Origin: Escherichia phage ECO340P2
Sequence record: OP172792
Direction: 5' to 3' (one strand)
DNA: 64,000 nucleotides
Part shown: positions 9,829-54,222 of the stretch, in pieces
Position numbering within the stretch: position 1 is the stretch's first letter
Layout: each line of letters starts with the position of its first letter
Notes under the pieces: generated by a model
Seen by the model: the letters and a program-made list of their open reading frames with translations, nothing else
Database searches by the model: none
What the model was told of the DNA's origin: nothing
Program-made: the position numbers and the translations under genes

Positions 9829-10014
9829 TCAACTAGGAATAATTTTATCCTTTTTGGTTTCATAACCAGTCCAATCTAAATCCTCCCAGCCTTCATCATC
9901 GTCTAACACATTGTCATCATCATAAGATGCAATGTTATAAATAGAACGTGGATTACAAGACATACAATCTTTAATAGGCACATGATGCCATTTGCACGGA
10001 TTCTCGCTAATCAT
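9829..10014 (-). CDS. hypothetical acidic small protein
   Basis: 61 aa ORF, last gene before the divergent AT-rich region. Confidence 0.45.
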   Translation of the reverse strand: MISENPCKWHHVPIKDCMSCNPRSIYNIASYDDDNVLDDDEGWEDLDWTGYETKKDKIIPS

Positions 10015-10495
10015 TACACACCTCCATTCTTGTTAAGATGTTCCGTACTGTACTTCATACTGATCTATAGATCAAGTATTATTTATAATAATTTATTATT
10101 TTATTTTTAATTGATAGAAGTTGATCTGTACGTACCAGTTCTGATACACTGTACCTGTTTGTTAGATCTAATAATTATTTATTATTAATATTTAATAATT
10201 ATTAATCTAGTACGGAGTACAGTACTTGAGTACAGAGTACTACATCAACAACCTAAAACCTTAACTCGCTGCGCTCGTTAATAGATTTCTAGGGTAGCAT
10301 ACTTCGAACACAAAAGTCAAGAGTTTTATTAAAAATTATTTTCTGTGTGCAAAAACCTTGCTTAAACAGGTAGCAATAGTATAGCCTATAACATAAGCTT
10401 CATAAGAGGCTCGTAGAGCAAGTTCACTTACTAGGTAAGGTGATTTATCATCTTATATATAAAAAGTGCGTCAGAGACGCGTTTAGGAGGTTAGA

Positions 10496-10819
10496 ATGAG
10501 ATTTACAAGACAAGAGGTAGTTGTGCTGGACGAAGCAATGACAATGATCGTCTTTTACTATGAGGATATCTTCTGTGCAGCATATCATTTAAATGACATT
10601 CAGATTGAATGGCAGCAGATAGCATTCCTGTTGGACAAGAGTAATCATTTGGATGGCTTTGAGTATTTGGAGTGGGATGGTGCAAAGGAAGTTAAAATTG
10701 TAGGGTTAAATCACGATCAGATTGTTGACATGCAATGTAAGTTGTGTCATTATCAGTTCTCAAACAAGGTCAAACTCGAAAGACAATTGGAGGTGGTTAA
10801 AGATGATAGCACTGATTAG
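10496..10819 (+). CDS. hypothetical protein
   Basis: first gene of plus-strand block; GGAGG 8 nt upstream of ATG. Confidence 0.55.
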   Translation: MRFTRQEVVVLDEAMTMIVFYYEDIFCAAYHLNDIQIEWQQIAFLLDKSNHLDGFEYLEWDGAKEVKIVGLNHDQIVDMQCKLCHYQFSNKVKLERQLEVVKDDSTD

Positions 10820-12313: not shown

Positions 12314-12780
12314 GAATTAAAGTAAATAAAGCTTACGATGATAACCCGAAGTTTATCTCTTTGAATAAGAGTTATGGTGTCGAAAACGGCGATGAGTTCG
12401 AGGTTATCGATCTTTTTGAGGATCACGGGTATATTGTCAAAGCCCCAATCACAGAGCAGCCTCTTATCATCTTACGCACAGAGGCTGTTGAGGTAGGTTC
12501 TGATGAGCCTCAATATGACAGCCCATACATGACAGAGTGGATTGTGGCTGTAGATGTTGGAGGCAGGGTTTCTGTATTGAAAGCTCCTAATCTCCATCCT
12601 AGTTTTACAGAGAACGGTTTGACAGCTTTGGATTACGGGTTGCCAGAAGATGTTGAGAATACACCGCCAGGTATGTACCGTTGGATTTGCTCTTTCCATG
12701 AAGAGAAGGATTGGGAATCAGGTCTTGTGGAGGATTGGCATTTTGAAGTGGAGAGTTCTTTTTTAATCATGCCAGCTTAG
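12310..12780 (+). CDS. hypothetical protein
   Basis: 156 aa ORF, RBS GGAGG. Confidence 0.55.
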   Translation: MRIKVNKAYDDNPKFISLNKSYGVENGDEFEVIDLFEDHGYIVKAPITEQPLIILRTEAVEVGSDEPQYDSPYMTEWIVAVDVGGRVSVLKAPNLHPSFTENGLTALDYGLPEDVENTPPGMYRWICSFHEEKDWESGLVEDWHFEVESSFLIMPA

Positions 12781-35552: not shown

Positions 35553-35561
35553 TATACTTAT

Positions 35562-35586
35562 ACTCCCTTTTCGGAGGGAGTATTTT
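35562..35586 (+). terminator. rho-independent terminator
   Basis: ACTCCC-TTTTCGGA-GGGAGT hairpin followed by ATTTT. Confidence 0.5.
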
Positions 35587-35597
35587 AAGGAGGGATT

Positions 35598-40104: not shown

Positions 40105-40126
40105 ACCCGCTTCGGCGGGTTTTTTA
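40105..40126 (+). terminator. rho-independent terminator
   Basis: ACCCGC-TTCG-GCGGGT hairpin followed by TTTTTTA. Confidence 0.6.
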
Positions 40127-48792: not shown

Positions 48793-48988
48793 TTCTACCT
48801 CCTTCAATGCTTTGTGCCGTACCATCCCAAGCCATTAGAATGTTTTCCAATAGTTCACGAGGCTCTTTAAACCAAACTTCCATTTCATCAAGGATCTCGT
48901 CCGTGTCGTAAGTATAACCTGGAACACCAAGTTCACATTTCTTAAGATAGCTTTCTAACCAGCGGTGATAATTCTTAACCCCATTCAT
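48785..48988 (-). CDS. hypothetical protein
   Basis: 67 aa ORF. Confidence 0.5.
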   Translation of the reverse strand: MNGVKNYHRWLESYLKKCELGVPGYTYDTDEILDEMEVWFKEPRELLENILMAWDGTAQSIEGGRNE

Positions 48989-49361
48989 ACTGTGCTACCT
49001 TTTCTTTTACCCAATCTACACGATCTTTATCATAATGTTGAGTGCCAAGGAAAAGACCATTGTGGAAACTTTCCTCACCGAAAGGATAAATTGGATCTAA
49101 ACCATCTTCTTCAAACAACATTTTTAATCGATTTGATGTAGATTTCTTAGTTTCTGAATTGTAGTTTGTGGTTATAAGCCAATCTTCCAAACAACGACAC
49201 AAACCTTGACGAGAATCCCAAGGAAAAACACAATCTCCGACAGGAGCTTGTTCAGCCCATTTCAACCAGCCTTTAAAAAAGTTATACAGTATGTAGTCTT
49301 CAGTGTAATACATTAGCGCCTCCTTTACATATACAATAACACCCCGCAGAACGGGGTGCAA
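48975..49361 (-). CDS. paralog family A member (FY..W..GLC..FPF..WV small protein)
   Basis: shares FFKGWL, GLCRCL, YPF and RVDWVKEKV blocks with six other ORFs in this block. Confidence 0.55.
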   Translation of the reverse strand: MHPVLRGVIVYVKEALMYYTEDYILYNFFKGWLKWAEQAPVGDCVFPWDSRQGLCRCLEDWLITTNYNSETKKSTSNRLKMLFEEDGLDPIYPFGEESFHNGLFLGTQHYDKDRVDWVKEKVAQYEWG

Positions 49362-49980: not shown

Positions 49981-50253
49981 TCACCCCCAAGAAATATTTA
50001 TATATCTTACAATGTTTGCACTGTCTAAAGCCATGTTTGCACCACACCCACGCTCGCGCCAGTAACTAACAATACCTTCACAGATACTCTCTTGTATCTT
50101 CTTATCACTTGGCATTTCTAGTATAAGACTTGGGTTGTGGATGTTTATGTTATAATATCCTTCCTCTGCGGCTTGAGCTACCAATTTACTTACTTTTTCA
50201 AAGTACGGGGAATTAGTGGCATCTGCCATTGTTTTTAAGGTTTGTCTATCCAT
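49981..50253 (-). CDS. hypothetical protein
   Basis: 90 aa ORF. Confidence 0.5.
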   Translation of the reverse strand: MDRQTLKTMADATNSPYFEKVSKLVAQAAEEGYYNINIHNPSLILEMPSDKKIQESICEGIVSYWRERGCGANMALDSANIVRYINISWG

Positions 50254-50618
50254 TATTCTGCCTCATCATAGAAGAAATCCAACTCTTGTTCCAGTTGTTT
50301 AACTTGATCCTTAACCCACTGTACACGTTTTTCATTAAACATGCAACGTTTTTCCTTACACTCTTGCTCAAAAGATTTTGCTGTGTTAAATGGGAAAGTT
50401 GTATCTAAGCCAGCGTTTTCAAAACTGGCTAATTGCATACCATAAACAGAATATGCTAAAGAATGCTCTGCCCGAAATTCATCACTTATATACATACGCA
50501 GACCTCGGCATAAGCCAACATCAGCGTAACCACTTTCTCTTGGAAAGAGACGGAGGTGTTCTAACCAATTATTATAGAAATCTAAAAGAATCCTCTTACA
50601 CTTCAAATCGATTGTCAT
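50253..50618 (-). CDS. paralog family A member
   Basis: LDFYNNWL, GLCRGL, FPF, RVQWVKDQV; ATG after GAAGGAG (ORF-track start 50708 overlaps upstream gene). Confidence 0.5.
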   Translation of the reverse strand: MTIDLKCKRILLDFYNNWLEHLRLFPRESGYADVGLCRGLRMYISDEFRAEHSLAYSVYGMQLASFENAGLDTTFPFNTAKSFEQECKEKRCMFNEKRVQWVKDQVKQLEQELDFFYDEAE

Positions 50619-51026: not shown

Positions 51027-51704
51027 CTATTTAATGTTAAGTCTGGCACACAAACGAGAAACAGTTTTAGCATCCCATTTACCACCACGTGCTGTTGCTA
51101 TTTTCTTACTATTGAATTTTTCAGCAATAGTTTTGTAAGGTGTATTTAAATCTCTAAGGATCTCCAAACGTTCACGGAATGTCTCTGCAAAAGCGTCTGC
51201 TTTAACAGAGTTGTATTCCATTTTTCCTTTTCTACGTGCAGCGGCAGTTTTAGGATTAGCACTACCTAATAAAACACCTTTGCTTTTTGCTACAGCAAGA
51301 CCCTTTTTAATACGATCAGCAATACCTCTAACTTCTTGTTCAGCCAGAACAGACAGAAGCTGTATAACCATTTTATCTGCGTCTGGCATAATGGCTATCT
51401 TAACATCGATCATTTCTAGAAGAGTTGCTACGGAGGCGTTGTTACGACCCAAGCGGTCAACTTTAGCTACCAATAAAGTTGCTCCGGTAGCTTTACACAT
51501 TTCAACCGCTTTGACCAGTTCCTTACGTTGCTTCCAATCGCCCTTACCCGAATAGTATTCAGAAAATTGACCAATAACTTCAGCATCAGGCACAGAGTCT
51601 AAGAAGTAACGGATATCGTTCTCTTGGCTCTCCATACCATATTGTGCCTCACCTTTTTTCTGTTTAGAAAGACGACTGTAAACAACAAACTTTTTCATAA
51701 CCAC
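51027..51704 (-). CDS. serine recombinase (resolvase/invertase family)
   Basis: 225 aa; N-terminal YSRLSK catalytic-serine region, VDRLGRN block, C-terminal HTH-like region. Confidence 0.7.
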   Translation of the reverse strand: MVMKKFVVYSRLSKQKKGEAQYGMESQENDIRYFLDSVPDAEVIGQFSEYYSGKGDWKQRKELVKAVEMCKATGATLLVAKVDRLGRNNASVATLLEMIDVKIAIMPDADKMVIQLLSVLAEQEVRGIADRIKKGLAVAKSKGVLLGSANPKTAAARRKGKMEYNSVKADAFAETFRERLEILRDLNTPYKTIAEKFNSKKIATARGGKWDAKTVSRLCARLNIK

Positions 51705-51727
51705 TCCTAAACTATTGCTGTATTCTC

Positions 51728-51756
51728 ACTTTACAAAACGAATAAACACTTGTCAA
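51728..51756 (-). promoter_or_regulatory. sigma70-like promoter (TTGACA-17-TAAAGT) upstream of the recombinase gene
   Basis: reverse complement of the intergenic region gives both boxes with 17 nt spacing. Confidence 0.4.
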
Positions 51757-51768
51757 GGTATTTATTAT

Positions 51769-51981
51769 TTACAGCCATTCTACTCTTAAGCAGTATTCCT
51801 CGACATGTTGTTTACGCTTGTTTTTGTCTATGTAAGTGTATTCAACAAATGTCCCAAGATAGTCCTTGTCTACATTGTGTGGGCTATTGATTGGACATTT
51901 AGTACGACAAACCCGTTGCCACTGACGAAGAATTACGGCTTTGTTTTTAGGATCAAAGGGATGAGGGTAATGTGCCTTCAT
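51769..51981 (-). CDS. hypothetical protein
   Basis: 70 aa ORF. Confidence 0.5.
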   Translation of the reverse strand: MKAHYPHPFDPKNKAVILRQWQRVCRTKCPINSPHNVDKDYLGTFVEYTYIDKNKRKQHVEEYCLRVEWL

Positions 51982-53111: not shown

Positions 53112-53140
53112 ATTATGACAAAGACAGATCCTTCTGTCAA
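53112..53140 (-). promoter_or_regulatory. sigma70-like promoter (TTGACA-17-CATAAT)
   Basis: -35 overlaps stop codon of upstream gene, same arrangement as at 52644. Confidence 0.4.
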
Positions 53141-53463
53141 CCAATTATTTCTTCTGCTACACGTTCTTTTACCCAGTTCACACGATCCACATTCAAATGA
53201 CAACGGCTTTTTTCCGCTTCTAAGGTGTACTTTCCAAAATTACTGTTGAAAGGCAACACCATAACCAAATCTTTGAGGTAGAACTGCTCATGCATTTCAT
53301 CCAGTACATGTTGGTATCGTTCGCTTTCTCCCATGTCGTAAAAATCATAGAGGTTCGTGCACAAACCTGTGCAACGGGTGAACGGTTCACCTTCAGGAGC
53401 ACCAGCTTCCAACCATGCCAAATACGTGCGGTAAAATGTTAATAGTTCTTCGCTCATTTCCAT
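53137..53463 (-). CDS. paralog family A member
   Basis: FYRTYLAWL, GAPEGEPF, GLCTNL, LPFN, CHLNVDRVNWVKERV. Confidence 0.55.
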   Translation of the reverse strand: MEMSEELLTFYRTYLAWLEAGAPEGEPFTRCTGLCTNLYDFYDMGESERYQHVLDEMHEQFYLKDLVMVLPFNSNFGKYTLEAEKSRCHLNVDRVNWVKERVAEEIIG

Positions 53464-53668: not shown

Positions 53669-53896
53669 TTATTCCTCCATCTCAAACCATTCAGGGAACA
53701 CTTTATGGAAGACACGGGTTGTTTCCAAAAGGAATTCCAATTCTTTTTCCAGGTCTGCGTTCCAATCGTGCACTTTAACATTGATTGCCAATGCACTTGC
53801 ACGGCGACTTAATTCTTGACAGATTGGATCACACAGAACTATTGAGTCGTAAAACTGACAAACGGCCTCAAGTTCATACCAGTTATAATCCGACAT
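53669..53896 (-). CDS. hypothetical protein
   Basis: 75 aa ORF. Confidence 0.5.
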   Translation of the reverse strand: MSDYNWYELEAVCQFYDSIVLCDPICQELSRRASALAINVKVHDWNADLEKELEFLLETTRVFHKVFPEWFEMEE

Positions 53897-54222
53897 TATT
53901 CATCCTCCTCTGCAATACGATCTCTTACCCAATTAATCCTGTCCACGTTCAGGTGACATACCTCTGCATCTGATTCTAAGACATATGCATCGTAGTTCTC
54001 ATTGAAAGGGAGTTCTTGACTCAACCCTTTGTAGTAAAACTGTGAGTGCATTTCGTCTGACAAGGTTGTTATAAGGAGATTGTAGCCATCTGCGTGCACA
54101 TAATCGAACAAGTTGGCACACAAACCGCAATCTCGCCGAAAAGGTTTACCATCAGGAGCACCAACATCAATCCATGCTAGATAAATTTTATAAAACTCCA
54201 TCAACCCTGCGCTTGTTTTCAT
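53896..54222 (-). CDS. paralog family A member
   Basis: FYKIYLAWI, GAPDGKPF, GLCANL, LPFN, CHLNVDRINWVRDRI; closest to the 53137 member. Confidence 0.55.
   Translation of the reverse strand: MKTSAGLMEFYKIYLAWIDVGAPDGKPFRRDCGLCANLFDYVHADGYNLLITTLSDEMHSQFYYKGLSQELPFNENYDAYVLESDAEVCHLNVDRINWVRDRIAEEDE

Follow-up and report, generated by a model that had tools for sequence, protein, structure and literature searches.

An early gene for a short serine recombinase, conserved in Escherichia phage ECO340P2 and related virulent phages

The window analysed here, a stretch of 64,000 nucleotides from Escherichia phage ECO340P2 (sequence record OP172792), contains an intact early gene whose predicted product is a catalytically competent, short (~220 aa) serine recombinase. 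As judged by its distribution, the gene is a conserved resident of Stephanstirmvirinae phages and not a recent insertion. The encoded protein is very probably an active site-specific recombinase, and control of an inversion switch, for tail fibres or anything else, is unlikely to be its role. Public records already annotate the gene as a recombinase; its only unexpected features are a short, integrase-like architecture and the modular swap of a DNA-binding domain, and it is otherwise an ordinary, annotated gene. The question raised is why a whole virulent subfamily keeps an intact site-specific recombinase under strong purifying selection.

Gene boundaries, promoter and early-block setting

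The coding sequence occupies window positions 51027..51698 on the minus strand, with an ATG at 51698 and a TAG stop at 51029-51027, and specifies 223 aa; it is supported by the list of open reading frames and by Pfam and PHROG matches. The initial annotation had described a serine recombinase of 225 aa. The gene is real and of that class, but its length is to be corrected. The programmatically called open reading frame (51027..51704, minus strand) begins with a GTG at 51704, which overlaps the Shine-Dalgarno sequence AGGAG (51704..51708, minus strand). This AGGAG, read from the sequence, lies 5 nt upstream of the ATG and is kept in relatives. Because of the overlap, the real start is almost certainly the ATG at 51698. 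The 672-nt coding sequence annotated in phages UP17, SF1-1 and phAPEC8 corresponds to the ATG-started frame. The location on the minus strand is a further correction.

Escherichia phage ECO340P1 (OP172791.1) matches the 3 kb around the gene at 100% identity and the window as a whole at ~99%. ECO340P1 is a virulent Phapecoctavirus (Stephanstirmvirinae), a group of ~150-kb virulent myoviruses; its 151-kb genome served for comparisons beyond the window.

A sigma-70-type promoter precedes the gene (51728..51756, minus strand). It consists of a −35 hexamer TTGACA (51756-51751), a 17-nt spacer and a −10 hexamer TAAAGT (51733-51728). Both hexamers and the spacer, as proposed initially, were confirmed on the strand of the gene by direct reading of the sequence, and a promoter scanner also returned the site (10/12 matches). 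As a class, promoter-like sites between 47 and 56 kb are not above chance (28 versus 23.8 +/- 5 expected). The recombinase promoter is intergenic, lies on the coding strand and is identical in UP17 and Schickermooser; it falls inside an island of homology common to phage phiWec181 (window 51766-51265). In the same place, a separate promoter of the form TTGAC(A/T)-16/17-hexamer precedes each of the orthologs of phiWec181, phi92, a Klebsiella phage and ICP1. Equally good TTGACA-17 promoters are found at two neighbouring genes (53140 and 52672), and a private promoter is therefore normal for this block.

In the combined ECO340P1 genome and window, the gene is part of a ~39-kb run of small genes on the same (minus) strand. 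This run starts at the physical left end of the genome, with the gene ~12 kb inside. In phage Schickermooser the direct terminal repeat is 329 bp long; it corresponds to window 63643-63971, and terminal repeats on virion DNA have been reported (PMC6563267, PMC12695924). Since the run begins at the physical left end, it fits an early block; the placement of the gene in the early block of a lytic phage thus stands, the group being virulent.

Catalytic domain, C-terminal module and class membership

The protein has three parts: an N-terminal catalytic module, a variable linker and a C-terminal module predicted to bind DNA. The catalytic module (residues 1-140; 51279..51698, minus strand) is an α/β domain that contains Ser11, R9, D81, R82 and R85, and ends in helix E (residues 109-139). 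It matches the Pfam Resolvase domain PF00239 over residues 5-142 (E=5e-18; 66 bits against a cutoff of 23.3), as well as PHROG 125, 'DNA invertase' (E=2.6e-32). A homolog search in 5.8 billion proteins gave 93 homologs, nearly all of 213-258 aa, of which 45 were aligned; PF00239 is matched by 45/45. Across these homologs, down to ~30% identity, Y7, R9, S11, Q25, R58, D81, R82 and R85 are invariant. With all eight catalytic columns invariant, the catalytic set is intact; R9, S11, D81, R82 and R85 are the counterparts of gamma-delta R8, S10, D67, R68 and R71. The initial assignment had been made to depend on a catalytic serine in the alignment, and Ser11 is both present and invariant in the 45 homologs.

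The AlphaFold model is confident (pLDDT 88) and consists of the α/β catalytic domain, a long helix E, a linker and a small helical domain. The best matches by sequence in the PDB are the catalytic domains of Gin (top, E=1.6e-17), Tn3 and gamma-delta resolvases, and Sin; TP901-1 is also among the matches to the catalytic module. Foldseek adds the integrases Bxb1, phiC31 and SPbeta, over ~250 columns. The linker (residues 141-165; 51204..51278, minus strand) follows a conserved GxLG that closes helix E. Its model confidence is the lowest in the protein (pLDDT 62-76), and its identity ranges from 18 to 76% among the 19 relatives tabulated (for example 20% in P0004).

The C-terminal module (residues 166-223; 51030..51203, minus strand) is predicted to form four helices and carries the motif IAxxLNxxGxxTxRGxxW. 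None of the 45 family members has an HTH_7 domain, the Hin/resolvase type, in this part. The C-terminal matches found among the 45 are to PF07508 (22), HTH_38 (4), HTH_62 (2) and HTH_58 (1). In these 22 members, it is the N-terminal part of PF07508 that is matched, the 'Recombinase' domain of large serine integrases; in the ECO340P2 protein only positions 19-48 of 102 are matched, below the cutoff. On this evidence the module is similar to the beginning of that 'Recombinase' domain. The zinc ribbon, the coiled coil and the remainder of the recombinase domain are absent from the 223-aa protein. In our own reading of the alignment, the Ser-to-Gln spacing of 14 residues is like that of large integrases and unlike that of small resolvases.

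The ECO340P2 protein has in common with Gin/Hin/Cin, gamma-delta/Tn3 and Sin the fold of the catalytic domain, the serine nucleophile, helix E, the DRLGR motif and a size of ~200 aa. Gin, Hin and gamma-delta possess HTH_7 and a short STxQQ motif, whereas the ECO340P2 protein lacks HTH_7 and has the longer, 14-residue spacing; furthermore, no adjacent invertible segment or recognisable res site was found here. The large serine integrases Bxb1, phiC31, TP901-1 and SPbeta SprA form a class of 450-700 aa, and the ECO340P2 protein is less than half their size; no attP/attB pair was found, and no integrated form in 5,426 complete E. coli genomes. By its defining sequence features, then, the protein is a serine recombinase, yet neither a Hin/Gin-type invertase nor a serine integrase. 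The earlier label 'resolvase/invertase-type' is apt for the catalytic domain, which is closest to small resolvases and invertases, but not for the C-terminal part, given the HTH_7 and PF07508 counts above.

Curated families do not accommodate the protein either. No NCBIfam family (YneB, XisF, Mpi, CcrB) was reached; the best match is to the YneB family (NF049883), which likewise comprises stand-alone resolvase-like proteins of ~210 aa, and at 32.5 bits against a cutoff of 175 the protein is not a member. A serine transposase of the IS607 type requires an N-terminal MerR-like helix-turn-helix, and here the catalytic domain is N-terminal. As regards a resolvase in the usual sense, no association with a transposon or plasmid was found: the gene occurs once, as a resident of a linear, terminally repeated phage genome.

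Distribution, relocation and mosaic alleles

By tblastn, the protein is present in 162 phage records, 62 of them at >=99% identity, and an identical (100%) protein occurs in >20 phage records among the matches listed. Identity is mostly >=99% within Phapecoctavirus, 57% in phi92/Justusliebigvirus and 55% in Klebsiella relatives; remoter homologs are found in ~130-kb Vibrio phages (35-39%) and in ICP1 (30%). The GenBank orthologs represent the same gene, with 100% identity to the phAPEC8 group and 57% to phi92 gp053, equal length and an early promoter of their own; only the locus differs, in phi92-type phages. Their labels vary between serine recombinase, resolvase, DNA invertase and recombinase family protein, others, more numerous, are 'hypothetical', and some carry a wrong label. 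phAPEC8_0049 has been noted as a 'putative site-specific recombinase' since 2012; phi92 gene_053 is a 'DNA invertase', the ESCO13 ortholog a 'resolvase', and those of UP17 and Ro121c4YLVW are each a 'serine recombinase'. In the literature on Phapecoctavirus, phi92, ICP1, virulent phages and truncated small serine recombinases, no experimental work on the protein was found. One paper guesses, without data, at a resolvase role that keeps concatemers as a single genome (PMC10282059).

Within the gene, pairs of isolates (n=4) differ by 8-13 nt, all synonymous, with 0 amino-acid changes. The same isolates show 1-4 amino-acid changes in six neighbouring genes and 0-1 in one. These counts indicate strong purifying selection on a gene that is conserved throughout Stephanstirmvirinae, no weaker than the selection on its neighbours.

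The locus has nevertheless changed within the subfamily. The gene occupies a fixed slot in phi92, in the Klebsiella phage and in two metagenomic relatives at 50-54% identity, where the order is lysozyme-PhoH-...-methyltransferase-two small genes-recombinase. Downstream of the recombinase, three of these four (phi92, the Klebsiella phage and one metagenomic relative) have a phosphatase and a DprA-like gene. This slot is a DNA-metabolism neighbourhood (methyltransferase, DprA-like) with no tail-fibre module. ECO340P1 holds the same block gene for gene, with the slot empty except for a 45-bp gap containing a hairpin. In phi92-type phages the slot lies between gp054 and gp052; the Phapecoctavirus recombinase is 15.5 kb from the corresponding empty slot, on the opposite strand. 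The empty slot and the distance together indicate a single move of the promoter-plus-gene cassette, in the line of Phapecoctavirus.

A second type of change affects the protein itself. The phiWec181-type allele is 95% identical in residues 1-140 and only 40% in residues 166-223; DNA homology between phiWec181 and ECO340P2 covers the promoter and the catalytic half only (51766-51265), and the flanks are unrelated. The alignments thus indicate that the DNA-binding module has been exchanged between close relatives, which implies different target sequences in those relatives. In the Schickermooser allele, seven small deletions (1-7 nt) all fall in the first ~330 nt, that is, in the catalytic half. 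The 3' half, which encodes helix E and the DNA-binding domain, has remained intact; an annotated open reading frame of 128 aa corresponds to it. These deletions represent either a real inactivation or a local assembly fault. phAPEC8_0049 is full length, and only Schickermooser is disrupted.

Target site and role

According to the initial annotation, small serine recombinases in virulent phages usually drive inversion switches or resolve replication multimers, and it had suggested such a switch, with a target that may lie elsewhere in the genome. It had also stated that no inverted repeats bracket a segment around the gene; this is true, and extends to the whole ECO340P1 genome, in which self-comparison gave no inverted repeat >28 bp except local palindromes (very short or degenerate sites may escape such a search). 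The genome-wide inverted pairs of 21-28 bp were rejected as crossover sites. A recurring family of 22-27 bp is the intrinsic terminator aacccgcTTCGgcgggttttt, oriented with local transcription; among the other short pairs, one is a GC hairpin and one a ribosome-binding region.

Three of the six 25-kb blocks of the genome were compared in depth with the best 60 related genome records, namely the tail-fibre/baseplate block (genome 50001-75000), the recombinase block (window 39001-64000) and genome 100001-125000. In nearly all records they are collinear, on the same strand and in a single place, and the variation in these blocks takes the form of cassette replacement, not inversion. Records with extra matching places are those in which the match is split by the record end, plus WPEC1/2/4/6 (9-11 places). 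In WPEC4 (100 kb examined), blocks are shuffled and inverted, with breakpoints at ECO340P1 34568, 90477, 113635, 120485 and 146981. This rearrangement was rejected as recombinase action, as the breaks fall at start codons or gene boundaries and share no motif. The WPEC4 junctions place ATG codons head to head without ribosome-binding sites, and the WPEC scrambling is judged, from the sequences, to be an artefact of assembly or concatenation. An active Gin-like switch would be expected to leave both orientations among ~60 records. The suggested switch has accordingly found no sign in its favour, either in the genome-wide search for inverted repeats or in the collinear records.

It is therefore very unlikely that the enzyme is a DNA invertase that flips a segment elsewhere, such as tail-fibre ends in the manner of Mu Gin or P1 Cin. 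The idea has some backing in nomenclature and homology, since PHROG 125 and several GenBank records say 'DNA invertase' and Gin is the closest solved catalytic domain by sequence. Set against it are the lack of inverted repeats >28 bp in ECO340P1 beyond local palindromes, the identity of the recurring short pairs as terminator hairpins and the collinearity of the three blocks on one strand in ~60 related records, together with the missing Hin-type HTH_7 domain and the position of the phi92-type gene among DNA-metabolism genes.

Candidate sites were sought next to the gene and in the genome at large. The upstream gap is only 64 bp and is occupied by the promoter; between genera, upstream regions share the −35 hexamer only. 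The sole dyad next to the gene, of 26 bp, covers this −35 hexamer (AATAAATAC-N8-GTGTTTATT, window 51741-51766). It was rejected as evidence for a crossover or operator site: such dyads are found at 2.1 per kb, with one in 9% of random windows of 64 bp, and phiWec181 does not share the right arm. Within the terminal repeat, 29 bp form a palindrome (window 63695-63723) whose centre is a single base, a symmetry at odds with a crossover staggered by 2 bp; this palindrome and the recombinase upstream region have no common word of >=11 nt. An AT-rich palindrome of 36 bp (window ~10169-10204) has the look of an origin of replication or a regulatory region and shows no connection with the recombinase. 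Among long direct repeats in ECO340P1, only the 329-bp terminal repeat was found besides an assembly overlap and an internal 145-bp repeat (74%). As the terminal repeat is directly repeated, a site inside it would exist twice, in direct orientation. Bacterial and prophage homologs offer no guide to function, their contexts being mixed (a prophage edge, a satellite-like element, and a position beside a baseplate gene with a separate large integrase); near those examined, no invertible segment was found.

The mechanism we propose follows that of the superfamily. Shortly after infection, host RNA polymerase would transcribe the gene, using the gene's own sigma-70 promoter. The protein, as dimers, would occupy two copies of a short site with dyad symmetry, and the dimers would come together in a synaptic tetramer; Ser11 would cut all four strands with a 2-bp stagger, half of the complex would rotate by 180 degrees, and the strands would be rejoined. 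Our best guess at the substrate is the phage's own DNA, with either a single-copy site or a site within the terminal repeat. The reaction would then be of the deletion or resolution type, and would either circularise the incoming, terminally repeated genome or resolve replication products. Taken as a whole, this explanation (an active recombinase that acts on phage DNA by deletion or resolution, and not by tail-fibre inversion) has somewhat less than an even chance of being correct.

The role itself, resolution or circularisation of phage DNA, is a more tentative proposal and, taken separately, rather unlikely. It fits early expression, the DNA-metabolism neighbourhood in phi92-type phages and the direct terminal repeat. 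Against it, no site was found: the −35 dyad is non-significant, and the terminal-repeat palindrome has the wrong symmetry. Judging from T7-like replication in general, a need for circularisation or for the resolution of multimers is not known in phages whose terminal repeats are short. The sharp divergence of the DNA-binding module (95% versus 40%) would also be easier to explain with a variable or external target than with a fixed core phage sequence. If the Schickermooser deletions are real, the enzyme would be dispensable for growth in culture. Some precedent is provided by Cre/loxP of phage P1, a tyrosine recombinase system that is dispensable for lytic growth, cyclises terminally redundant incoming DNA and resolves dimers. 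This is a functional analogy only: Cre belongs to another superfamily, P1 is temperate and maintained as a plasmid, and no lox-like site was found here.

An external target is the premise of a further explanation, in which the enzyme acts on foreign DNA, such as the host chromosome or a competing mobile element (for example PLE-like satellites), and rearranges, excises or traps it in the course of takeover or counter-defence. In its favour are early expression from a host-type promoter and a DNA-binding module that is swapped between near relatives while the catalytic module remains 95% identical, as would happen if the target varies; the possible inactivation in one cultured isolate (Schickermooser) and the occurrence of homologs in both ICP1 and Stephanstirmvirinae point the same way. 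Integrative satellites have been reported to parasitise both of these phage groups (PMC10055350). The link is circumstantial, however: no candidate target was found, no homolog of the recombinase is reported in those satellites, and the protein is 100% identical across phages from many E. coli, Shigella and Klebsiella hosts. We consider the explanation unlikely, with a small but appreciable chance of being right. A selfish mobile cassette, in which the recombinase would be its own transposase or homing enzyme without benefit to the phage, is quite improbable. The presence of the ~730-750-bp promoter-plus-gene unit at different loci in phi92-type phages and Phapecoctavirus, with the ancestral slot cleanly empty, is suggestive of mobility, as is the homology to phiWec181, limited to the promoter and catalytic half amid non-homologous flanks. 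Only two locations were seen across the subfamily, though, and the phi92-type slot is kept to 50% identity, so that movement must be rare. Each genome has a single copy, the ends of the cassette show neither terminal repeats nor footprints, purifying selection is at least as strong as on neighbouring genes, and the domain order is unlike that of IS607-type serine transposases.

Loss of recombination, leaving a DNA-binding regulator or a gene that is being lost, would account for the Schickermooser allele, with its catalytic half disrupted by seven deletions and its 3' half intact as a 128-aa open reading frame, and for the weak dyad over the gene's own −35 hexamer. This is highly improbable in view of the catalytic residues invariant in 45 homologs to ~30% identity and of the 0 amino-acid changes among isolates against 8-13 synonymous differences; the dyad, moreover, is non-significant. 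Finally, the enzyme might be an integrase that permits occasional integration or persistence of a supposedly virulent phage. Distant members do occur in temperate elements (at a P. aeruginosa prophage edge, and in a small element with primase and small-terminase-like genes). One prophage relative has a separate large serine integrase ~1 kb away, however, and the small enzyme is therefore not the integrase of that prophage. The ECO340P2 protein lacks the zinc ribbon and coiled coil, the source of attP/attB discrimination in serine integrases. Moreover, a search of 5,426 complete E. coli genomes gave no match to the 3-kb region, and a published account calls the phage group strictly lytic (PMC10282059); an integrase function is thus extremely unlikely.

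This last point has practical relevance. Therapy and biocontrol are uses for which Phapecoctavirus phages are being developed, and a gene labelled 'recombinase/integrase' counts as a lysogeny risk in automated screens. The present evidence argues that the gene is not an integration module, because the zinc ribbon and coiled coil are missing from its predicted product, 0/5,426 E. coli genomes contain the region, and the gene is resident in a strictly lytic lineage.

The preferred explanation, recombination of phage DNA by deletion or resolution, and that of action on foreign DNA can both be extended to the family. The ~220-aa proteins may form a minimal class of serine recombinases, derived from large integrases, with only the initial helices of the recombinase domain retained. 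They would be deployed early by large virulent phages that have terminal repeats (Stephanstirmvirinae, the ~130-kb Vibrio phages and ICP1), to circularise the genome at the terminal repeat or to recombine competitor DNA such as that of a satellite, with re-targeting by the exchangeable DNA-binding module. We offer this as a speculation that is improbable in its full form; neither circularisation nor action on competitor DNA is a task for which lytic phages are known to employ such an enzyme. If a target is found, a compact enzyme with an apparently exchangeable DNA-binding module could interest genome engineers.

Genes and labels around the recombinase

Four small paralogous genes, all on the minus strand (window 48975-49361, 50253-50618, 53137-53463 and 53896-54222), surround the serine recombinase gene. 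Their products of ~108-128 aa have a common C-terminal motif, R(V/I)(D/N/Q)WV(K/R)(D/E), and none of the four has a Pfam match. They are an early gene family that is expanded locally and has no assigned function. Directly upstream of the recombinase, also on the minus strand, lies a gene for a 70-aa protein (window 51769-51981) that matches DUF7202 over its full length (E=3e-37). In many GenBank records this gene is labelled 'methionine ABC transporter ATP-binding protein', surely an annotation error copied from record to record; the same label is attached to the recombinase itself in at least two records.

Recombinase loci in related phages

The slot that holds the recombinase in phi92-type phages lies between the gp054 and gp052 orthologs. 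In the closely related genome of ECO340P1, the two orthologs are separated at this slot (119648-119692, about window 35553-35597) by just a 45-bp spacer, which includes a hairpin (atactccct-tttcgg-agggagtat). Seven small deletions, of 1, 1, 7, 1, 2, 3 and 4 nt, lie in the first ~330 nt of the Schickermooser copy of the gene (L011, its recombinase locus, 4001-4650; NC_048196.1 11303-11952). Its 3' half is intact, and the sole ORF annotated there is C-terminal, with 128 aa. The deletions reflect either genuine inactivation of the gene or a local problem of sequencing or assembly. A prophage-like relative whose homolog has 43% identity carries a separate large serine recombinase as well as a small recombinase (6835-8181 and 5001-5777 of L018, a stretch of its genome). 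The small recombinase adjoins a baseplate gene, and the large one, of 448 aa, lies ~1 kb off; the two coexist, presumably with different jobs.

Terminators, genome end and a gene-free region

An intrinsic terminator, aacccgcTTCGgcgggttttt, is present in near-identical copies at window 40106-40119 and at ECO340P1 12449-12475, 75352-75377 and 128930-128956. It occupies at least four intergenic positions, with every copy oriented with local transcription. The Schickermooser genome is bounded by a direct terminal repeat of 329 bp, and window 63643-63971 is its counterpart, so that virion DNA has its physical left end at about window 63971. Within this stretch lie promoter-like elements and an imperfect palindrome of 29 bp (window 63695-63723), ATGCGAATGAGAATAATTATCATTCGTAT.

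A region of ~480 bp (window ~10014-10496) is free of genes, with a minus-strand structural/tRNA block on one side and a plus-strand block on the other. This region, a candidate replication origin or divergent control region, includes a 36-bp AT-rich imperfect palindrome (window 10169-10204), followed by several GTACAG(A) repeats.

Doubtful database records

Compared with every other Phapecoctavirus genome, the records of WPEC4 (PV682947.1), WPEC1, WPEC2 and WPEC6, of 155-161 kb, have their blocks shuffled. Each breakpoint coincides exactly with a start codon or a gene boundary. Tiny ORFs crowd one stretch at about 39-45.6 kb, and these four records look like mis-assembled or concatenated contigs. 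Several host labels also look doubtful: among the matches listed, Campylobacter phages B15, A145 and A150, Acinetobacter phage ABPW7 and 'Dompiswa phage' share 96% identity or more with this E. coli phage, yet all of them bear the names of other hosts.
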